Positions 2,741 to 10,699 of a stretch of 64,000 nucleotides of DNA are shown one piece after another. The stretch covers positions 32,001 to 96,000 of IMG/VR virus record IMGVR_UViG_3300032092_000005. The stretch is one strand, 5' to 3'. The notes under the pieces are model-generated. The model was not told the origin of the DNA and did no database searches. It saw only the letters and a program-made list of their open reading frames with translations. Origin of the DNA: a virus. How positions within the stretch are numbered: the first letter of the stretch is position 1; the number at the start of each line of letters is the position of its first letter. A program made the translations under genes and the position numbers.

Positions 2741-2940
2741 GCAGAGGATTAGAAATTGATTATGAGACTGCGGATCGAATTACAGTCTTGACTTTAAAAG
2801 AACATGTAGAATATCTGAAAGAGGAATTGCGTCAGCACGTTGAACAAGAAACGTGGATGCATTCAGAAGATGTAGTTGATACTCCTATACGTATTTCTCA
2901 ACTAGAAGCCGTCATCAAGTATTTTGGTGGTTCGGTATAA
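2737..2940 (+). CDS. hypothetical protein
   Basis: 67 aa ORF, ATGA overlap. Confidence 0.6.
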   Translation: MSRGLEIDYETADRITVLTLKEHVEYLKEELRQHVEQETWMHSEDVVDTPIRISQLEAVIKYFGGSV

Positions 2941-3017
2941 AAATATTTTTAAAAATGTATAGTAATTTACATTCCGAATGCATATATACTATACATGGTT
3001 ATACATTATGAAAAGAG

Positions 3018-3311
3018 TTGAATGTGAATGAAATTGAAAATGAAATTTTGCTGATTGCACAAGAAGAATGCGCAGAAGTAACGCAAGCAATTAGTAAAGT
3101 TTTTAGATTCGGCATTGATGGTAAACACTTAGGTGTAACCAACAGAAGCCGATTAGAAGAAGAGTGTGGAGATTTGCTATGCATGATTTCCCTAATGATC
3201 GATAAAGGTATCATTAGCGAGACTGCAACATATCAAGCATCCATGGATAAAAAAGATAAGTTAATTAAATGGTCTGGTATTTTTAAGGAAGAAAAAGTTG
3301 AAACAACCTAA
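3018..3311 (+). CDS. MazG-like nucleotide pyrophosphohydrolase
   Basis: EECAE..QAISK and LEEE.GDL acidic motifs. Confidence 0.7.
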   Translation: MNVNEIENEILLIAQEECAEVTQAISKVFRFGIDGKHLGVTNRSRLEEECGDLLCMISLMIDKGIISETATYQASMDKKDKLIKWSGIFKEEKVETT

Positions 3312-3465
3312 GAGTTTATCGTTAGTCAGTATAGCAAGACATATGCCAAAATCATGGCAGGGATGCACACGCTATAATATGGCAACGGCAACATTGGGCG
3401 CGGACTTTAATAACTCCCTTATTGCTGAACCTAGTCAGAGGCTTTTTGAAAGCGCAGTCGAATAA
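3298..3465 (+). CDS. putative 55-codon leader peptide (attenuator)
   Basis: TTG start 6 nt after AAGGAAG; overlaps antiterminator arm 3438-3448. Confidence 0.5.
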   Translation: MKQPKSLSLVSIARHMPKSWQGCTRYNMATATLGADFNNSLIAEPSQRLFESAVE

Positions 3466-3487
3466 CACAACACCCGACTACCCTACC

Positions 3488-3524
3488 AAAAAGCCTCAAG
3501 ACAAAAAATCTTGAGGCTTTTTTT
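3488..3524 (+). terminator. intrinsic terminator with alternative antiterminator pairing
   Basis: AAAAAGCCTCAAGA-7nt-TCTTGAGGCTTTTT plus U-tract; the 5' arm also pairs with 3438-3448. Confidence 0.8.
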
Positions 3525-3526
3525 AT

Positions 3527-3589
3527 TGTGACTTAAAAACAACACTTCTTAAAAAAAGTGTTGACAACCAAGAAGATGCATGTTATCAT
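3527..3589 (+). promoter_or_regulatory. tRNA operon promoter with TGTGA-N8-CAACA box
   Basis: box 3527-3544; TTGACA 3561-3566; TG-N-TATCAT 3584-3589. Confidence 0.75.
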
Positions 3590-3617
3590 ACGTGTATCGA
3601 TTGAGAAATCAATCACT

Positions 3618-3630
3618 TGCTCCTTAACAA
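3618..3630 (+). promoter_or_regulatory. boxA-like antitermination element
   Basis: TGCTCCTTAACAA vs rrn boxA TGCTCTTTAACA, between promoter and first tRNA. Confidence 0.65.
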
Positions 3631-3649
3631 TTTGTATCCATATTTTTAT

Positions 3650-3723
3650 TCCCGAGTAGTGTAGTGGTAACACACCAGACTTTGACTCTGTTATTGTAAG
3701 TTCGATTCTTACCTCGGGTGCCA
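3650..3723 (+). tRNA. tRNA-Gln(TTG)
   Basis: cloverleaf, CT-TTG-AC loop, CCA. Confidence 0.9.
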
Positions 3724-3725
3724 GT

Positions 3726-3800
3726 GGTGATATAGCACAGTGGAAGTGCAACTCCTTCATACGGAGTAGGTCGTTGGTTCGAATCCAACTATCACCACCA
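3726..3800 (+). tRNA. tRNA-Met(CAT), probably elongator
   Basis: GGTGATA/TATCACC acceptor, TT-CAT-AC loop. Confidence 0.9.
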
Positions 3801-3841
3801 TATAAAAACACATTCCTATTTTTAGTGTGTTTCTATATGGT
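3797..3841 (+). ncRNA. CCA-anchored stem element, copy A (minimal)
   Basis: ACCATATAAAAACACATT...AGTGTGTTTCTATATGGT. Confidence 0.55.
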
Positions 3842-3869
3842 TGACATGCAATCATTACCGTGTTACAAT
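3841..3869 (+). promoter_or_regulatory. sigma70-type promoter
   Basis: TTGACA-17-TACAAT with extended TG. Confidence 0.75.
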
Positions 3870-3896
3870 AACACATCAACAAAAAAAGGAAGCGAC

Positions 3897-3920
3897 ATGA
3901 AACGTTCAGGTAAACGATAG
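3897..3920 (+). CDS. minigene MKRSGKR followed by hairpin
   Basis: AAGGAAG SD, own promoter, hairpin 3920-3959. Confidence 0.4.
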   Translation: MKRSGKR

Positions 3921-3985
3921 TGTCAACTTTTGATCCCATGTATGGTCTTAAGTTGGCACGTAAAAGAAAATTCAATACGTAACAA

Positions 3986-4060
3986 CCACTCTAAACTTTG
4001 GCGGTGAAGTCCTGCCTCTTAAGCAGCGAGAATTGAGTTCGAATCTCAAAGAGTGGACCA
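3986..4060 (+). tRNA. tRNA-Lys(CTT), atypical
   Basis: CCACTCT/AGAGTGG acceptor, CT-CTT-AA loop, TTCGAAT T-loop; A at position 8. Confidence 0.8.
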
Positions 4061-4065
4061 TACAT

Positions 4066-4141
4066 GGGATCGTGGTGAAATGGTTATCACAGCAGACTTT
4101 TAATCTGCCAGTTTCGGGTTCGAGTCCCGGCGGTCCTACCA
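4066..4141 (+). tRNA. tRNA-Lys(TTT)
   Basis: cloverleaf, CT-TTT-AA loop. Confidence 0.92.
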
Positions 4142-4228
4142 TATAAAAACACATTAAGCACCTCGTACGGTGTTAGGGAAGTTCATGCATGGCGACTCGG
4201 CGCAGGCTATAATGTGTTTCTATATGGT
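4138..4228 (+). ncRNA. CCA-anchored stem element, copy B
   Basis: ACCATATAAAAACACATTA...TAATGTGTTTCTATATGGT enclosing a ~53 nt insert. Confidence 0.6.
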
Positions 4229-4300
4229 GACGTTAGTTTAGTGGCAAAACCGCGGGTTGTGATTCCGCTATCATGGGTTCGATTCCCATACGACACCCCA
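4226..4300 (+). tRNA. tRNA-His(GTG)
   Basis: G-1, C73, TT-GTG-AT loop. Confidence 0.9.
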
Positions 4301-4311
4301 AAGATTTTTAT

Positions 4312-4386
4312 GCCTCGTTAGCTCAGTGGTAGAGCAGTGCTTTTACACGGCGAAGGTCGGCAGTTCGAAACTGTCACGAGGTACCA
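4312..4386 (+). tRNA. tRNA-Val(TAC)
   Basis: cloverleaf, TT-TAC-AC loop. Confidence 0.9.
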
Positions 4387-4391
4387 ATAAT

Positions 4392-4467
4392 GCCAGGATA
4401 GCTCAGTTGGTAGAGCACTTGTTTGAAGCACAAGGTGTGGGCGGTTCGATCCCGTCTCCTGGTACCA
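4392..4467 (+). tRNA. tRNA-Phe(GAA)
   Basis: cloverleaf, TT-GAA-GC loop. Confidence 0.92.
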
Positions 4468-4477
4468 GAAATGATAT

Positions 4478-4552
4478 GTGCCTTTAGTAAAATGGATATT
4501 ACACAACGCTACGAACGTTGGAGTGGGAGTTCGATTCTCTCAGGGCGCACCA
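4478..4552 (+). tRNA. tRNA-Arg(ACG)
   Basis: cloverleaf, CT-ACG-AA loop. Confidence 0.92.
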
Positions 4553-4562
4553 AGAGATATAT

Positions 4563-4654
4563 GGAAGATGATGCAGCGGGGTTGGTCCTGCGACTGGCCT
4601 TGAAAACCAGGTTCTCAGAAATGGGATGGGGTTCGACTCCTCCGTCTTCCGCCA
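4563..4654 (+). tRNA. tRNA-Ser(TGA), 8/4 cloverleaf
   Basis: 8-bp acceptor GGAAGATG/CGTCTTCC, 4-bp T-stem, long V-arm, G73. Confidence 0.85.
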
Positions 4655-4655
4655 G

Positions 4656-4684
4656 TTGACAATGAAGCTTGATTGTGATACAAT
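4656..4684 (+). promoter_or_regulatory. sigma70-type promoter for small-RNA/DUF2828 unit, inside an inverted repeat
   Basis: TTGACA-17-TACAAT; CAATGAAGCT...AGCTTCATTG. Confidence 0.75.
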
Positions 4685-4703
4685 AGCTTCATTGTAGAGT
4701 TTT

Positions 4704-4866
4704 AGGATAGGTACAGCAACCCACTAATACCGAATCGTTTAGTCACTGTGGTAAAAAACTGGAGTACGGAGTCTTGACCGAGTACGTTGAAGGTTTGACA
4801 CTGAAACATACTAAGCAAGGAGAGTTTCGATTTTCTCTCTGTAAACAAAAAGTAGACAACTATCCT
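4704..4866 (+). ncRNA. Y-RNA-like small RNA, copy 1
   Basis: AGGATAG-GTACAGCAA...CTATCCT-GTT terminal stem. Confidence 0.7.
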
Positions 4867-4884
4867 GTTATATTTGAAAGTTTT

Positions 4885-5014
4885 AGGATCGGTACAGCAA
4901 CATTAATCTTTACTAAAAGATGGTTCGAGCTAGTTTAAGGCAATAACACCCTTATTTCTTGAACCCACGTGAGTTTCGAATTCTCACTCGAAAGAAAAAG
5001 TAGAAACCGATCCT
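4885..5014 (+). ncRNA. Y-RNA-like small RNA, copy 2
   Basis: AGGATCGG-TACAGCAA...CCGATCCT-GTT. Confidence 0.7.
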
Positions 5015-5024
5015 GTTGTATTTT

Positions 5025-5146
5025 AGGTTAAGTTCCGCAAAACAAAATATGCAAACATAAACCGAAAGTCTGGTTCGATTCCAGCTAGGGCACGTAGTGT
5101 CTTAGTAGTGTAATGGCAGCACATTGGTACGCAAAAAGTTTAACCT
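5025..5146 (+). ncRNA. YrlA-like RNA with circularly permuted tRNA domain, copy 3
   Basis: AGGTTAAG-TTCCGCAA...TTTAACCT; T-arm, loop-closed acceptor and D-arm in permuted order. Confidence 0.75.
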
Positions 5147-5167
5147 GTTGATTTGAAAGGAAATATT

Positions 5168-6607
5168 ATGTCAACATTTGTAGAAGCCGTAGTAAACCAA
5201 GAAGCCCGTACTGCCAATGGCATGAAGGCACGTAAGTCCACTGCTAATGCGGTTGTAGATTTATTCTACAATGCAGGTGCAAGCCGTGGTAAGAATATTG
5301 TTCCTGCATTCGCAGCAGCATTTGCGCAAGACCGTGATCTAGCATTGCGCGTAGCCGCCTGGTTGCGTGATGTGCGTAGCGGTGCAGGTGAACGTCAATT
5401 GTTCCGTGATATCTTAGGGTATCTGGAAAACAATGATCGTGTAGCAGCAAAGGCACTTGTTGCAAAGGTTCCTGAATTGGGACGTTGGGATGACTTGTTC
5501 ATCTTCAATTCTAAGGAAATGAAGGAAGCAGCATACACATTGCTTGGTGACGCATTGCGTGAAAAGAATGGCCTTGCAGCTAAGTGGACACCTCGTCAAG
5601 GCAAGCTTGCAGCAGAAATTCGTACATTCTTCGGAATGTCGCCAAAGTTCTACCGCAAGTCTCTAGTTGAAATGACTAACGTTGTTGAAACTAACATGTG
5701 TGCAAAGGACTGGGACGGGATTAACTTCTCGCATGTTCCATCTGTAGCAGCATCGCGGTACAAGAAGGCATTCAACCGTAACACTCCAGCTTATGCAGCA
5801 TACGTTGCAGAGTTGATGAAGGATCCAAAAGATCGTACAGTTGAAGTGAAGGTTAATGCTGGTGCAGTGTACCCATATGATGTACTGAAAGGTCGCATCT
5901 CTGGTTATGGTGTGTCGTTTGACAAGACAGAATTGGATCTGATCCAAAAGCAATGGGAAGCACTACCTAACTTTGTTGGGGATGCAAACATTCTGCCTTT
6001 GGTTGACGTTTCTGGTTCTATGACTTGTCCAGCAGGTGGATCAGGCTCAAAGTCTAAGCTGACTTGCCTGGAAGTTGCAGTCTCTCTGGGATTGTATCTT
6101 GCAGACAAGAACAAGGGTAAGTTCAAGGATACGTTCTTGACTTTTTCTAACAAGCCAGAGTTGATGACTTTGAAGGGCAACATCAATGAGAAGATCAGCC
6201 AAATGGTTTCTTCTGATTGGGGAATGACTACTGACTTGAATCGTGCGTTTGACAAAATCCTTAGTGTAGCAATTAAGGGCAATGTGCCAAACAGTGAAAT
6301 GCCAGAAATGTTGCTGATCCTTTCGGACATGCAATTCAATTCTTGTGTTGCACATGACGATTCGGCTATCGAAATGATGGCACGTAAGTACGAAGCAGCA
6401 GGATACGCCTTACCAAAGGTTGTGTTCTGGAACTTGAATGCTGCATACGGCAATGCGCCTGTGAAGTTTGACAAGTCTGGCACTGCATTGGTTTCGGGGT
6501 TCTCTCCAGCCATTGTTAAGCCTCTGCTATCTGGCGACATGGAAGACTTTTCACCAGAGGCTGTGATGTTGAAGACAATCATGGATGACCGTTATACTGT
6601 GATTTAA
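5168..6607 (+). CDS. DUF2828-type Ro60/TROVE-like protein with C-terminal vWA domain
   Basis: RDVRSGAGER, PELGRWDDL, AKWTPR, MIDAS DVSGS, SDMQF, VFWNL, SGFSP motifs; AAAGGA SD. Confidence 0.85.
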   Translation: MSTFVEAVVNQEARTANGMKARKSTANAVVDLFYNAGASRGKNIVPAFAAAFAQDRDLALRVAAWLRDVRSGAGERQLFRDILGYLENNDRVAAKALVAKVPELGRWDDLFIFNSKEMKEAAYTLLGDALREKNGLAAKWTPRQGKLAAEIRTFFGMSPKFYRKSLVEMTNVVETNMCAKDWDGINFSHVPSVAASRYKKAFNRNTPAYAAYVAELMKDPKDRTVEVKVNAGAVYPYDVLKGRISGYGVSFDKTELDLIQKQWEALPNFVGDANILPLVDVSGSMTCPAGGSGSKSKLTCLEVAVSLGLYLADKNKGKFKDTFLTFSNKPELMTLKGNINEKISQMVSSDWGMTTDLNRAFDKILSVAIKGNVPNSEMPEMLLILSDMQFNSCVAHDDSAIEMMARKYEAAGYALPKVVFWNLNAAYGNAPVKFDKSGTALVSGFSPAIVKPLLSGDMEDFSPEAVMLKTIMDDRYTVI

Positions 6608-6687
6608 AAATCTAAGTATAACTCCGAGGATTCGAAAGAGTCCTCATTTTGAAGTGTGCTGATAGTGCATTTCAAAATGAAAAATAA

Positions 6688-6775
6688 GGAAGACTCCCAT
6701 AATGGTATTGGAGCGGCTTGCTAAGCCGTCGGTCGTTAAATCGGCTTCGGGGTTCGAGTCCCCGGTCTTCCGCCA
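6688..6775 (+). tRNA. tRNA-Ser(GCT)
   Basis: TT-GCT-AA loop, long V-arm, G73. Confidence 0.9.
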
Positions 6776-6850
6776 TACACAATGTACGCTATAATGTACA
6801 TTAACAGTGGTTTTTGTTCATAATGGGCGTTTTTATGCCTCTTATGACAG

Positions 6851-6911
6851 TGTTGTATTTTTGCAACAGACACAAAAAAAGTGTTGACAAATCTTCTGAT
6901 CCTGTTATACT
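6851..6911 (+). promoter_or_regulatory. second tRNA operon promoter with TGTTG-N8-CAACA box
   Basis: box 6851-6868; TTGACA 6884; TATACT 6906. Confidence 0.8.
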
Positions 6912-6943
6912 AGATTCTGTTGAGTTGATAGTGATTCAACAAA

Positions 6944-6956
6944 AGTTCTTTAAAAA
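6944..6956 (+). promoter_or_regulatory. boxA-like element
   Basis: AGTTCTTTAAAAA between promoter and tRNA-Glu. Confidence 0.6.
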
Positions 6957-6972
6957 GTTAAGTGTGATTTTT

Positions 6973-7047
6973 GCTCAGTTCGACTATCGGTCAGGTCGCT
7001 AGACTTTCAATCTGGAAAGACGGGTTCGACTCCCGTACTGAGCACCA
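6973..7047 (+). tRNA. tRNA-Glu(TTC)
   Basis: cloverleaf, CT-TTC-AA loop. Confidence 0.9.
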
Positions 7048-7158
7048 TATTAAAGCATATTTCAGGTTGGGCTAGATTCGCGGTTTAGCTATTTGGGTAT
7101 CATGGACTAGGTAATTACTAGCACCGGTACTAAGATACGAAATGTGTTTTAATATGGT
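7044..7158 (+). ncRNA. CCA-anchored stem element, copy C
   Basis: ACCATATTAAAGCATATTTC...GAAATGTGTTTTAATATGGT with multi-hairpin insert. Confidence 0.6.
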
Positions 7159-7163
7159 AGTTT

Positions 7164-7240
7164 GCCCTGGTGACGGAATTGGTATACGTACTGGTCTTAG
7201 AAACCAGGTTTTGCGAGTTCGAGTCTCGCCTAGGGCACCA
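7164..7240 (+). tRNA. tRNA-Leu(TAG), short variable loop
   Basis: CT-TAG-AA loop; V-region only GTTTT. Confidence 0.88.
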
Positions 7241-7252
7241 AAAGTATTTTAT

Positions 7253-7329
7253 GCGTCTGTAATTCAATTGGACAGAAATTCAGTCTTCGAAACTGAAAGT
7301 TGGGAGTTCGAATCTCTCTAGACGCACCA
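7253..7329 (+). tRNA. tRNA-Arg(TCG)
   Basis: CT-TCG-AA loop. Confidence 0.9.
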
Positions 7330-7426
7330 AATTAAAACATACTGCTTGCCTGACTGCAAAAGTCGTGGTAAACTACAAGAGAAAGAGGTTCGAATCCTCG
7401 GGACTGGTAGTGTGTTTTAATTTGGG
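7326..7426 (+). ncRNA. CCA-anchored stem element, copy D (contains a T-arm)
   Basis: ACCAAATTAAAACATACTGC...GTAGTGTGTTTTAATTTGGG; internal GAGG-TTCGAAT-CCTC. Confidence 0.6.
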
Positions 7427-7498
7427 CTGATGGTATAATTGGGAACACAGTGGCCTTGCAAGTCACAGTTGGGGGTTCGATTCCCCCTCGGTCCACCA
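7424..7498 (+). tRNA. tRNA-Ala(TGC)
   Basis: G3:U70, CT-TGC-AA loop. Confidence 0.92.
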
Positions 7499-7500
7499 AA

Positions 7501-7690
7501 TCTCGTTACTACTTTCGTTAAAGTAGCGTTTGATTAGCGATAGAGATCCGGTGGCAGAAAACCGTTAGCGAGGTCAAACTCAGGCTCTGATAGGCAGAAT
7601 CTCAACTGCACACAGACACACAGAATAAATGGAGATGGACAGAGTAACTGCTCAATTAAGGGCTGGCGTAGAACCCAGTAGCTTATCCTA
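7501..7690 (+). ncRNA. unidentified structured RNA
   Basis: several stems and a possible pseudoknot between tRNA-Ala and tRNA-Asp. Confidence 0.45.
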
Positions 7691-7695
7691 TTTAA

Positions 7696-7770
7696 GGCTC
7701 GTTCATATAATGGTCATTATCGCGGATTGTCTATCCGTAGATGGGAGTTCGATTCTCCCACGAGTCGCCA
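7696..7770 (+). tRNA. tRNA-Asp(GTC)
   Basis: TT-GTC-TA loop, G73. Confidence 0.9.
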
Positions 7771-7778
7771 GTTTTAAT

Positions 7779-7852
7779 CCTCCGTTAGCTCAATGGTAGA
7801 GCAATCGGCTGATAACCGATAGACAGAAGTTCAATTCTTCTACAGAGGACCA
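7779..7852 (+). tRNA. tRNA-Ile(GAT)
   Basis: CT-GAT-AA loop. Confidence 0.9.
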
Positions 7853-7863
7853 AAAAGTATTTC

Positions 7864-7947
7864 GGAGTGAATGGAACAATGGTGTTCTAGCCGGCTGTAA
7901 CCCGGTGGCCTTCGGGCAGGTAGGTTCGATCCCTACTCACTCCACCA
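7864..7947 (+). tRNA. tRNA-Tyr(GTA)
   Basis: CT-GTA-AC loop, V-arm. Confidence 0.88.
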
Positions 7948-7953
7948 GATTTT

Positions 7954-8013
7954 AGAATGCGTTCAGCAAAAAAATACATTGAACTTTTAATTCAAACCGT
8001 AAAAAAGCATTCT
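7954..8013 (+). ncRNA. Y-RNA-like small RNA, copy 4 (tRNA-Lys anticodon stem-loop cargo)
   Basis: AGAATGC-GTTCAGCAA...GCATTCT-GTT; internal TTGAA-CTTTTAA-TTCAA. Confidence 0.7.
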
Positions 8014-8038
8014 GTTGTTTACATATATAATACGTTGT

Positions 8039-8114
8039 GTACGTGTGCGCCGAACGGCTAGGTAGCGGATTGCAAATCCGTATAATGCAGGTTCGAATCC
8101 TGTCACGTACTCCA
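8039..8114 (+). tRNA. tRNA-Cys(GCA)
   Basis: TT-GCA-AA loop, U73. Confidence 0.9.
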
Positions 8115-8128
8115 CACAAAAGATTTAT

Positions 8129-8207
8129 TCCGTAGAACCCGAGCATGGTGCATGGGCTTGACTGTTAATCAATGTTTAGCTGGGATCGTTACCCAGATAC
8201 GGAGCCA
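8129..8207 (+). tRNA. tRNA-Asn(GTT), atypical T-loop
   Basis: CT-GTT-AA loop; T-loop ATCGTTA. Confidence 0.78.
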
Positions 8208-8217
8208 AAAGTTATAT

Positions 8218-8293
8218 TGCGGGTAGTGCCCAGTCAACAGTCCAGTCTCATAAGCTCGGATCATCGGAGGTGCGAATCCTTCACCCGCAACCA
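8218..8293 (+). tRNA. tRNA-Met(CAT), initiator-like, atypical
   Basis: TGCGGGT/ACCCGCA-A-CCA acceptor, CT-CAT-AA loop, bulged anticodon stem. Confidence 0.7.
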
Positions 8294-8298
8294 GTTTT

Positions 8299-8353
8299 AG
8301 GATCAGTTCAGCAAACTTAAAAATTTCTCTTGTTCGGAAAAAAAGTTGATCCT
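8299..8353 (+). ncRNA. Y-RNA-like small RNA, copy 5
   Basis: AGGATCAG-TTCAGCAA...TTGATCCT-GTT. Confidence 0.7.
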
Positions 8354-8363
8354 GTTGTTTTTC

Positions 8364-8437
8364 GCCCTATTAGTATAATGGTATTACACCTGTTTTGTAA
8401 TCAGGTTACGGCAGTTCGATTCTGTCATGGGGCACCA
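8364..8437 (+). tRNA. tRNA-Thr(TGT)
   Basis: TT-TGT-AA loop. Confidence 0.9.
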
Positions 8438-8447
8438 AGTCATTTTT

Positions 8448-8521
8448 GCGGGGTTCATTTAATGGTAGGATTTCAGCCTTCCAAGCTGATAGTGCGAGTT
8501 CGATTCTCGCACCCCGCTCCA
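8448..8521 (+). tRNA. tRNA-Gly(TCC)
   Basis: CT-TCC-AA loop, U73. Confidence 0.92.
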
Positions 8522-8528
8522 ATATTTT

Positions 8529-8602
8529 CTCGGTGTGGTGAAATGGTATCACTCTTGGTTTGGGACCAAGGAGCGCAAGTTCGATTCTTGCCACCGAGAC
8601 CA
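8529..8602 (+). tRNA. tRNA-Pro(TGG)
   Basis: TT-TGG-GA loop. Confidence 0.92.
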
Positions 8603-8610
8603 CAAGTTTT

Positions 8611-8670
8611 AGGATAGTTACAGCAAAAAACAAAGCTAACTATTGGTTGTCTAGCGACAAAAGCTATCCT
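8611..8670 (+). ncRNA. Y-RNA-like small RNA, copy 6
   Basis: AGGATAGT-TACAGCAA...GCTATCCT-GTT. Confidence 0.7.
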
Positions 8671-8688
8671 GTTGTTTAATGAGGCTAT

Positions 8689-9234
8689 ATGAAAAAATGT
8701 CCAAAGTGTAATAGTACACATGAAAAAAATGGAAATTTTTGTTCCAGAAAGTGTGGTAATTCTAGGACATGGTCTGAAGAAGATAAGAAAAAAAAATCAG
8801 ATTCTGCTAAAAAATACTACGATGAAAATGTCCACCCAGGATTAGGAAAACCTGGATGGAAACATAGTGATGAACAGAAATTACTCAAAAAGAAATTGTC
8901 TCTTGAAATGTGGGATAAAATTGGTAGAAAATCGTCTGAGCATTATAGACTTGCAAATATTCACACAGTAAACAAATACAGAGCAAGAAGGTATGATGCT
9001 ATAACCGAATCTACAGACTTAAATCTAATTAAAGAGATTTATAAGTACTGTCCTAAAGGTTATGAAGTTGACCATATAATAGCTCTTGCATGTGAAGGCG
9101 AACATCATCAAGATAATTTACAATACCTTCCAGCAATAGAAAATAGAAAGAAAAACAAAACACAAAATTATAACAAGGATCTTGCCGTTCGTTGGCAAGA
9201 TGTATTAAAAATAAGTACAAGGAGTTCACTATGA
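8689..9234 (+). CDS. HNH homing-type endonuclease with N-terminal Zn finger
   Basis: CPKC..FCSRKC; EVDHIIAL..GEH...NLQYL...N..K. Confidence 0.8.
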   Translation: MKKCPKCNSTHEKNGNFCSRKCGNSRTWSEEDKKKKSDSAKKYYDENVHPGLGKPGWKHSDEQKLLKKKLSLEMWDKIGRKSSEHYRLANIHTVNKYRARRYDAITESTDLNLIKEIYKYCPKGYEVDHIIALACEGEHHQDNLQYLPAIENRKKNKTQNYNKDLAVRWQDVLKISTRSSL

Positions 9235-9476
9235 GTAATGACGAAAAAGGTTCTAAGGCAAGACCGTTCAGCGTGTCTCAGCATGAATATGATACAAGAT
9301 GGGATGCAATTTTCGCAAGAGAATTGCAAGAAAAAGCACTTGATGAATTAGTTCGTGAAAGCGAACGATTAGGACTTTATGATATTCCTATTGTAGAAAA
9401 AGATTTTATAAATGCTAATACAATTTTAGAAATGCCCGGAACAATCGGTAGCGCAAAAGTTATTCTAAAAGGTTAA
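9231..9476 (+). CDS. hypothetical protein
   Basis: AGGAG SD, ATG 9231 in the frame of ORF 9192..9476. Confidence 0.65.
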   Translation: MSNDEKGSKARPFSVSQHEYDTRWDAIFARELQEKALDELVRESERLGLYDIPIVEKDFINANTILEMPGTIGSAKVILKG

Positions 9477-9477
9477 T

Positions 9478-10236
9478 ATGAGAATTGTGATTGTAACGGG
9501 CGGCTTTGATCCACTTCATAGTGGACATGTTGCTTACATTAAAGCAGCTAGAGAACTAGGCGACAAATTGATTGTCGGTATAAACTCTGATGAATGGCTA
9601 TCGCGCAAAAAGGGGCGTCCCTTTATGTCGTGGCAAGAACGTGCAACTATCGTTTCAGCTATCGCAGAGGTTGACAGAGTTATCTGTTTTAATGATGGTG
9701 ACAATACTGCAATTGATGCAATTCGAAAAGCTAAAAAGATTTTTCCTAATCATGATATCATCTTTGCAAATGGCGGTGACAGGACAAAAGAAAATATACC
9801 CGAAATGGTATTTGATGATGTAGAGTTTGTGTTCAGCGTTGGCGGTGATAACAAAGCGAATTCTTCTAGTTGGATTTTAGAAGAATGGAAAACACCTAAG
9901 ACAGAACGGACATGGGGTTACTATCGTGTACTGCATGAAGTCGGTTCACAGGTTAAACTAAAAGAGTTGACGGTAATGCCTAAAACATGTTTGAGTATGC
10001 AGAGACATGATCAACGTGCAGAGTTCTGGTTTGTAGCTGAAGGAGAAGCCACGGTGTACACCTTGAATGAAGCTTCAACTGATCAAGAAGTTAAATGTCA
10101 ATTAATTGCACATGAGCATACATTTATCAAAACAAACGAATGGCATCAATTATGTAATGAAACTACAGAGCCTTTAAAGCTCATTGAAATTCAATACGGC
10201 AAAGCTTGTATTGAAGAAGACATAGAACGGTTATAA
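9478..10236 (+). CDS. cytidylyltransferase-like (HxGH) domain fused to mannose-6-P isomerase-type cupin
   Basis: GGFDPLHSGH; RTWGYY...SMQRH..RAEFW...IEIQYG. Confidence 0.8.
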   Translation: MRIVIVTGGFDPLHSGHVAYIKAARELGDKLIVGINSDEWLSRKKGRPFMSWQERATIVSAIAEVDRVICFNDGDNTAIDAIRKAKKIFPNHDIIFANGGDRTKENIPEMVFDDVEFVFSVGGDNKANSSSWILEEWKTPKTERTWGYYRVLHEVGSQVKLKELTVMPKTCLSMQRHDQRAEFWFVAEGEATVYTLNEASTDQEVKCQLIAHEHTFIKTNEWHQLCNETTEPLKLIEIQYGKACIEEDIERL

Positions 10237-10239
10237 TAT

Positions 10240-10313
10240 ATCTCGCTAGTGTAACGGCAGCATACGGGTCTCCAAAACCCTTGGTGGGAGTTCGAATCTC
10301 TCGCGGGATGCCA
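10240..10313 (+). tRNA. tRNA-Trp(CCA)
   Basis: CT-CCA-AA loop. Confidence 0.9.
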
Positions 10314-10319
10314 AATTTT

Positions 10320-10393
10320 GCGTGGTTAGTTAAATGGTAGAACCAAACGTTGCCAACGTTTAGACAGGAGTTCGATTCTCCTACCCCGCACCA
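10320..10393 (+). tRNA. tRNA-Gly(GCC)
   Basis: TT-GCC-AA loop. Confidence 0.88.
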
Positions 10394-10404
10394 AAAACTC
10401 ACAC

Positions 10405-10433
10405 TTGACAGAGTATCACTATGATGATACAAT
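10405..10433 (+). promoter_or_regulatory. sigma70-type promoter
   Basis: TTGACA-17-TACAAT. Confidence 0.7.
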
Positions 10434-10448
10434 AGTCTATCAAATATT

Positions 10449-10523
10449 CTGGCGTTAGTACAATGGATAGTACAGTAGGCTTCTACCCTTCTAATGGGAG
10501 TTCGATTCTCTCACGCCGGACCA
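10449..10523 (+). tRNA. tRNA-Arg(TCT)
   Basis: CT-TCT-AC loop. Confidence 0.88.
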
Positions 10524-10530
10524 AAAATAT

Positions 10531-10616
10531 GCGAGTGTGGTGGAACGGTATACACAACAGACTTAAAATCTGTCGCCTTAACGGGCTTGCGGGTTCGAAT
10601 CCCGCCTCTCGCACCA
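10531..10616 (+). tRNA. tRNA-Leu(TAA)
   Basis: CT-TAA-AA loop, V-arm. Confidence 0.92.
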
Positions 10617-10624
10617 AGTTTAGT

Positions 10625-10699
10625 GCCTTGGTAGCTTAATGGTAAAGCAGGCGACTCATAATCGCTTGAGTGGGAGTTCAATTCTCTCCCAAGGCACCA
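10625..10699 (+). tRNA. tRNA-Ile2(CAT)
   Basis: GGCGA-CTCATAA-TCGCT anticodon arm as in E. coli ileX. Confidence 0.85.

Follow-up and report, generated by a model that had tools for sequence, protein, structure and literature searches.

Upstream of a tRNA gene array in an uncultured phage lies a leader element that we read as a ribosome-mediated leader-peptide transcription attenuator, gating read-through from a MazG operon into the tRNA genes. The element is found in a 64 000-nucleotide (nt) stretch of the virus record IMGVR_UViG_3300032092_000005 (positions 32 001 to 96 000 of that record; this whole stretch is called the window, and its first letter is position 1). From the anatomy of the region and the comparison of its relatives, we put the probability of this reading at about 70%. 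Its key parts are a 55-codon leader open reading frame (ORF) that contains every amino acid, and two alternative RNA helices, one of which is an intrinsic terminator. The phage probably lets more transcription into its tRNA genes when any codon is decoded slowly. An earlier note on this DNA, made from the letters alone, had proposed such an 'all-amino-acid' attenuator, and the comparison of relatives supports it. Why phages carry tRNAs is debated, the explanations being codon matching, decay of host tRNAs and escape from tRNA-cleaving defences. To our knowledge, the regulation of phage tRNA genes is largely unknown.

Two mutually exclusive helices in the leader RNA

The leader ORF runs from a TTG start at 3298 to a TAA stop codon at 3463–3465 (this and all other features given below lie on the + strand). 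It is present in the ORF list, matches a profile built from 13 leaders (E = 6.5e-16) and aligns with its relatives. A Shine–Dalgarno (SD)-like AAGGAAG, read from the sequence at 3285–3291, lies 6 nt 5′ of the start and is kept in the related loci L198 and L001. Codons 47–51 of the leader carry GAGGCTTTTTG (3438–3448), the upstream arm of the antiterminator, which we call region 2. Its exact complement, CAAAAAGCCTC (3487–3497, region 3), is also the 5′ arm of the terminator (3488–3524), in which regions 3 and 4 form a stem of 14 base pairs (3488–3522) with a 7-nt loop, followed by a T tract. Within the window, the region 2 11-mer occurs only at 3438 (+), at 3487 (−) and, with one mismatch, at 3513 (+), which is the 3′ arm of the terminator. 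The 2:3 helix and the terminator are mutually exclusive, because both use 3488–3497.

All 20 amino acids appear within the first 44 codons of the leader, Glu at codon 44 being the last new one, and 37 different sense codons are used. The earlier note had correctly read the complement, the terminator, the ORF with its 20 amino acids and 37 codons, and a separate promoter at 3561; it had erred in stating that the ORF was absent from the ORF track, since the program-made list contains it.

The full stretch folds with the terminator (−30.1 kcal/mol, z −4.9). When the transcript was cut before the 3′ arm of the terminator (3430–3505), the minimum-energy fold was the 2:3 antiterminator, with −25.1 kcal/mol (z −7.2) and 57% of the ensemble. 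By default the nascent RNA folds into the 2:3 helix. A trp-like region 1, which would form a 1:2 helix, was rejected, as the upstream part of the ORF paired with region 2 no better than shuffled sequences did (56 leaders, mean z 0.14, 2/56 at p ≤ 0.05). The element is therefore a two-state switch, which defaults to the antiterminator when no ribosome is on region 2. Of the trp/his attenuation logic invoked in the earlier note, the ORF, the terminator and the overlapping antiterminator thus stand, while the codon runs and the 1:2 helix are absent.

A scan of positions 2900–3700 against Rfam at E ≤ 10 gave only tRNA and sub-threshold chance matches, with no T-box (RF00230) or other cis-regulatory family at threshold. 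Phe_leader was rejected as an identity, as it scored 21 bits against a threshold of 55.

The module recurs in front of tRNA arrays

Relatives were collected as 276 loci (1.6 Mb in total), found through relatives of the MazG-like gene and a scan for a boxA-like 16-mer; they come from metagenomic phages. Since circularity was to be avoided, the 4642 distinct small ORFs in these loci (28–60 codons, counted from the first ATG) were judged by RNA architecture alone. An ORF was picked if it had a terminator within 115 nt, a duplex of its last 36 nt with the 5′ arm of that terminator, and a tRNA within 700 nt. After two doubtful ORFs were dropped and the TTG starts of the window and of L198 were restored, the working set comprised 56 distinct leaders of 31–55 residues. 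The profile of 13 leaders matched 38 ORFs, which stood well clear of the noise.

The layout common to the 56 is an ORF of 31–55 codons, the last of which pair with the 5′ arm of a terminator, then a boxA-like leader and the tRNA array, which begins 34–340 nt 3′ of the module in all of them. In some loci it follows a MazG gene, as in the window; in others it stands elsewhere, always just 5′ of the first tRNA, and has its own consensus sigma-70 promoter. Six further members were obtained from protein databases, all with a complete amino-acid set.

No close DNA relatives of the region were found among cultured phages. When the leader peptides of two families were searched against 50 697 phage records, the result was noise only, with no recognisable homologue in a cultured phage, and back-translated patterns of the window's own peptide gave no match in viral or metagenome contigs. 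Two apparent long relatives, P0032 and P0033, were set aside as gene-calling artefacts, in which an alternative genetic code setting had read the leader TGA as Trp and extended the protein to 145–162 residues through the terminator and tRNA genes. Several long multi-stretch matches in the protein databases also look spurious.

The leader behaves as a weakly constrained coding sequence

The ORF is open in 56/56 relatives, and differences in its length are whole codons. The ratio of non-synonymous to synonymous differences per site (pN/pS) was about 0.64 when pooled and 0.59 between the window and L198. With more synonymous than non-synonymous differences per site and with indels of whole codons, the ORF appears to be coding and only weakly constrained in sequence, and we infer that it is translated. 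The leaders begin either with an SD sequence or in leaderless fashion, the −10 hexamer ending 4–9 nt before the ATG in 17/56. Among members of the second kind are L096, L121, L126, L088, L114, L164, L130, L185 and L193, which look like leaderless mRNAs because their ATG sits 4–9 nt past a consensus TATAAT.

The weak purifying selection, together with one invariant Trp and a near-invariant Pro, might also be expected of an ordinary small protein that has its own terminator, the complementarity being a by-product. We consider this highly improbable. Leader peptides of different groups share only 16–28% identity, Met1 and the Trp being their sole invariant residues, and yet completeness of the amino-acid set is kept. 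Furthermore, the ORF always sits before tRNA arrays, its 2:3 complementarity is lineage-specific, and none of the members has a recorded Pfam domain.

Covariation of the arms across lineages

The first 27 modules to be examined all pair the final codons of the ORF with the terminator 5′ arm at −17 to −27 kcal/mol, the terminator itself having −12 to −23 kcal/mol. Over the whole set, every module has its last codons, often with the stop codon, paired with the terminator 5′ arm and up to 8 nt upstream of it (−14 to −27 kcal/mol), a pairing that equals the terminator itself in strength. The sequences of the arms vary by lineage, GAGGCTTTTTG in the window being replaced elsewhere by GGGGGCTTGTT, GGGGGTTTTGG, GGGGGTAC or GGGGTTTAAGAAAGT. 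Duplex energies were therefore calculated for each sequence, with a cognate-versus-foreign control, in place of a single consensus 2:3 structure. The mean energy was −20.3 kcal/mol for cognate arms and −13.1 kcal/mol for foreign region 3 sequences taken from other clusters, a median of 2.2% of which paired as well as the cognate one; for the window the values were −17.9 and −9.0 kcal/mol. On this comparison the arms covary between lineages. The terminator helix also covaried strongly, scoring 0.358 in 41 relatives compared with 0.157 after shuffling.

L198 is the closest relative with available sequence (80% MazG identity). Its regions 2, 3 and 4 are letter-identical to those of the window, and the middle of its ORF has diverged (pS, the synonymous differences per site, 0.32) yet stays in frame. 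The earlier note had asked whether related phages keep a leader ORF and switch with a poorly conserved but still diverse peptide, and whether the 11-nt complement is conserved; both turned out to be so, with 33 of the 56 leaders complete, as detailed below. In most relatives the geometry would allow a ribosome at the end of the leader to mask region 2, which either takes in the stop codon or ends −6 to +5 nt from it; the gap is wider in the window and in L198 (see below).

A second feature kept in place is a small hairpin inside the ORF. In the window it consists of TGCCA, a 6-nt loop and TGGCA (3344–3359), and it ends on the single Trp codon (3355–3357). A hairpin of differing sequence is found at the same place in nearly all leaders, with energies that are weak singly (mean z −1.3), and it may be a pause hairpin for RNA polymerase. 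TGGCA was also considered as part of a sigma-54 promoter and was rejected by eye, the spacing being wrong.

The conserved hairpin could instead be the binding site of a trans-acting factor (a protein, an uncharged tRNA or a small molecule) that works the alternative helices, with the ORF incidental. This is very unlikely, given that the 56 relatives have preserved the open frame through indels of whole codons, that region 2 is tied to the position of the stop codon and that the amino-acid set is under selection (see below); nor did the Rfam scan match any family, T-box included.

The amino-acid set is kept complete

A complete set is rare in windows drawn from this phage's own proteins: the frequency is 2.1% for windows of 55 residues and 0.5% for windows of 44. 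Among 54-codon windows of phage genes, 1.3% have 37 or more distinct codons, so that the earlier note, which had cautioned that codon diversity is not far from random expectation, was too modest. The completeness of the window's own leader is suggestive alone, and becomes decisive only together with the relatives.

All 20 amino acids were present in 33/56 leaders and at least 19 in 52/56, in only 31–55 residues. The number of complete leaders expected among 56 was 2.25 for a uniform composition (maximum 8 in 4000 simulations) and 0.8 for the pooled leader composition, and phage-protein windows of leader length were complete in 0.08–0.2% of cases. The 59 ORFs picked by architecture had 20 (31 ORFs), 19 (21), 18 (6) or 16 (1) different amino acids, whereas 48/4583 of the remaining small ORFs had all 20 (Fisher 7e-42 for 31/59 against 48/4583). 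When the leaders were grouped into 15 clusters at 50% identity, 10 clusters had a complete member and four more reached 19.

The positions of the residues are free to change. In pairs at least 60% identical, a single-copy residue lost from one position reappeared elsewhere in 66/83 cases, compared with 30–38 expected (P < 2e-5, with possible alignment shifts ignored). In each of two clusters the single Val is spread over six or more columns, and Cys, Gln and Tyr move likewise. L198 has its Cys at codon 11 and its Asp at codon 41, compared with codons 23 and 36 in the window, and both leaders are complete. Judged across the relatives, completeness is evidently under selection, and is neither inherited nor compositional.

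The leaders contain no regulatory codon runs, most amino acids being present once or twice. They are also unusual in codon use. Per approximately 39 codons they have 30.9 distinct codons, versus 25.0 in phage genes, and the codons are rarer (0.62 versus 0.72 on a scale like the codon adaptation index). CAG is favoured over CAA (72%, versus 29% in phage genes) and GAG over GAA (77% versus 27%), as are CGC, GGG, GCG, CCG and ATA, while TAC, TTC, ATC and GAC are almost never used. The G-rich arm accounts for part of this bias; the remainder may adjust how sensitive the leader is to particular tRNAs.

These data also bear on whether the switch, though real and ribosome-operated, reports only transcription–translation coupling (ribosome availability or global shut-off) and not each amino acid, so that the complete set has another cause or adds little. 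Without a 1:2 helix, an untranslated leader would already give read-through; the absence of codon runs, the many leaderless relatives, which would suit a test of the start of translation, and the residues present only where a stall could not be sensed (see below) are in keeping with this view. Nevertheless we think it unlikely. Completeness is far above the compositional expectation and lost single-copy residues reappear, which requires selection on the presence of each amino acid, and the leaders exceed phage genes in both the diversity and the rarity of their codons.

Proposed mechanism of attenuation

The attenuator would operate as follows. A ribosome would translate the 55-codon leader while RNA polymerase transcribes the region. 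If the ribosome keeps pace, it would reach the last codons and occupy or unwind region 2, so that regions 3 and 4 pair and the terminator (3488–3524) stops transcription. If the ribosome lags at an earlier codon, or is absent, regions 2 and 3 would pair as soon as region 3 is made, no terminator would form, and the polymerase would run on through the boxA-like leader into the tRNAs. With each amino acid represented at least once in the leader, a shortage of any charged tRNA would be sensed and would raise phage tRNA synthesis; more tRNA would speed decoding and close the loop. Starvation, decay of host tRNAs in the course of infection, or host defences that cleave tRNAs could act as the trigger. 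The direction of the response, from stalling to read-through, is the one expected from the anatomy and from the behaviour of known attenuators. The codon diversity, rare codons, leaderless starts and the hairpin at the Trp codon would all sharpen such a kinetic test of decoding speed.

The gene 5′ of the leader in the window encodes a MazG-like nucleoside triphosphate pyrophosphohydrolase (3018–3311), identified by tblastn matches to phage genes annotated as NTP pyrophosphohydrolase or MazG, with 587 relatives among viral contigs. The start of the leader overlaps the final 14 nt of this gene, and a promoter scan of the 130 nt upstream of the leader found no promoter between the two. Given the overlap and the missing promoter, the leader probably shares its transcript with the MazG-like gene, and translation of the two may be joint as well. 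Junctions of the leader with the end of a MazG-like gene are seen in two lineages, as the overlap in the window and as TAAAATG or TAATG in L003-type loci, and suggest translational coupling. MazG enzymes have been linked to (p)ppGpp turnover, so that this arrangement would place a starvation-related gene and a tRNA switch on one transcript.

Promoters and the boxA-like leader around the tRNAs

A second sigma-70-type promoter lies 3′ of the attenuator at 3561–3589 (TTGACA, 17 nt, TATCAT; 11/12 positions matched). A promoter between terminator and tRNA is present in 40/56 relatives, the window included, and absent in 16/56; in these 16, read-through is the only route to the tRNAs, since no promoter stands 3′ of the terminator. 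In the segment 3540–3566 of the window, an inverted repeat CAACACTT ... AAGTGTTG (3540–3563) overlaps the −35 hexamer of this promoter, and a similar repeat is found at the same place in L003-type relatives. The repeat may be an operator, in which case the bypass promoter would itself be regulated.

Between this promoter and the first tRNA gene, a hairpin (3599–3614) is followed by the boxA-like TGCTCCTTAACAATTTG (3618–3634), both read from the sequence. The segment 3599–3634 is similar to the boxB/boxA antitermination leaders of rRNA operons. In 48/56 relatives the interval from terminator to first tRNA contains a boxA-like motif, with GTTCTTTAAAAATTTG in the relatives corresponding to TGCTCCTTAACAATTTG in the window (loci L003–L277). 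The long untranslated tRNA transcript may thereby be shielded from Rho by host Nus factors.

The array begins with tRNA-Gln(UUG) at 3650–3723, the first of 25 tRNA genes that ARAGORN placed in the window, spanning 3650–10699. A further consensus promoter (3841–3869) was noted just before two tRNA-Lys genes, followed by an SD sequence and a 7-codon mini-ORF (ATG AAA CGT TCA GGT AAA CGA TAG; region 3841–3920). The record from which the window is taken is a 152-kb metagenomic virus record, and T4-like baseplate genes are present; the source phage is a lake-type, T4-like phage.

Evidence weighing against the attenuator

Several findings count against attenuation as set out above, the first of them concerning the window itself. 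Its promoter at 3561 feeds the tRNAs past the switch, as the second promoter does throughout the 40/56, and this lowers the regulatory weight of the switch in the window. The leader there also lacks a separate promoter and overlaps MazG. In the window 14 nt separate the end of region 2 from the stop codon, and in L198 13–14 nt, compared with −6 to +5 nt in most relatives; with this gap, a ribosome parked at the stop codon would cover only the 3′ end of region 2.

Taken together, the lack of a promoter in the 130 nt upstream of the leader, the near-consensus second promoter and the 14-nt gap would fit a switch of little regulatory weight in this phage, promoter 3561 mainly driving the tRNAs and the terminator chiefly ending the MazG operon. 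We hold this to be distinctly unlikely in view of L198, where arms 2, 3 and 4 are identical and the ORF, despite its diverged middle, has kept its frame and a complete set, with Cys and Asp at other positions; this combination points to continued selection in the lineage.

Other objections concern the set of relatives. For 39/56 leaders, codons that overlap region 2 are the sole source of one to four amino acids (mostly Gly, Val and Ala), and in the simple model a stall at those codons would not be sensed, because it would mask the antiterminator. In the window leader all 20 amino acids lie 5′ of region 2. A fixed-column test of 2:3 pairing on a MAFFT alignment was weak, with 66.9% paired against 61.6% after shuffling, and a slide by one column did nearly as well. 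We attribute this result to pairing registers that differ between lineages and to runs of G and U that allow slippage. The statistics also treat kindred sequences as partly independent. Finally, P0002, a close relative of the window peptide from an ENA contig, is a 94-codon ORF, known from its protein alone. It is nearly identical to the window leader over its first 40 residues and ends in ...FGGYLAGK, recalling the GGFGK ends of other leaders.

Comparison with known attenuators

The phage element is a known kind of attenuator in a variant that we have not found published. It shares with the enterobacterial attenuators (trpL, hisL, pheL, leuL and the multivalent thrL and ilvL) a short translated ORF, an intrinsic terminator and an antiterminator that uses the terminator 5′ arm, as well as the logic by which a ribosome finishing the ORF favours termination and a stalled ribosome favours read-through. 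Unlike them, the phage leaders have no codon runs, each amino acid being present about once, and no 1:2 anti-antiterminator was found in them. Region 2 lies inside the last codons and not behind the stop codon. The module is phage-encoded, leaderless in many cases, and controls tRNAs rather than biosynthetic enzymes.

In its logic, the nearest experimentally studied system is the upstream ORF (uORF) of mycobacterial whiB7, where efficient translation leads to a rho-independent terminator and stalling leads to an antiterminator and read-through (PMC10274678). A single Trp codon in this uORF suffices to sense Trp starvation, and its composition decides which starvations are sensed; the Mycobacterium smegmatis uORF has every amino acid except Cys, and that of M. 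tuberculosis lacks several (PMC10274678). The whiB7 uORF thus also senses many amino acids by composition. It differs in that alanine makes up 25–40% of its residues, compared with 4.3% in the pooled phage leaders, and in that its completeness is not conserved and it controls a transcription factor, whereas in the phages completeness is selected within 31–55 codons and the output is the tRNA pool. The phage element is like whiB7 in mechanism and is not a member of the whiB7 family.

The pheM leader of pheST senses Phe only, and a T-box binds one uncharged tRNA directly, without a ribosome. Like the phage module, these leaders of aminoacyl-tRNA synthetase genes control translation components by tRNA charging, but each responds to one amino acid, and the specifier loop and T-box sequence (RF00230) were not found at the phage locus. 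In bmrB-bmrCD of Bacillus subtilis, a leader ORF is combined with alternative stem-loops; the leader has to be translated, and rare codons affect the outcome (PMC4191407). Stall sensors of the bmrB type differ in that antibiotics aimed at the ribosome trigger them and their targets are efflux or resistance genes, and no complete amino-acid set has been reported for them. Full-text searches of the literature found no published account of leader-peptide control of tRNA genes, or of a leader selected for a complete amino-acid set.

Significance

We think it somewhat more probable than an even chance that a large and as yet uncultured group of T4-like freshwater phages possesses a homeostat of its entire tRNA pool, in which a leader kept complete senses slow decoding of any codon and opens the tRNA array. 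Control of tRNA genes by leader-peptide attenuation would then be without known precedent. The completeness rule, by which every amino acid is needed once and its position is free, is an unusual and easily testable form of selection on a peptide. The module is small and uses consensus sigma-70 promoters and intrinsic terminators. It could serve as a compact reporter of decoding speed. For the phages, the homeostat would be a built-in answer to starvation, to host tRNA decay and to tRNA-cleaving defences. Some phages would then make tRNA on demand, and tRNA carriage would be tied to translation stress. Attenuation, in its textbook form a matter of 'one operon, one amino acid', would come to cover the decoding apparatus as a whole.

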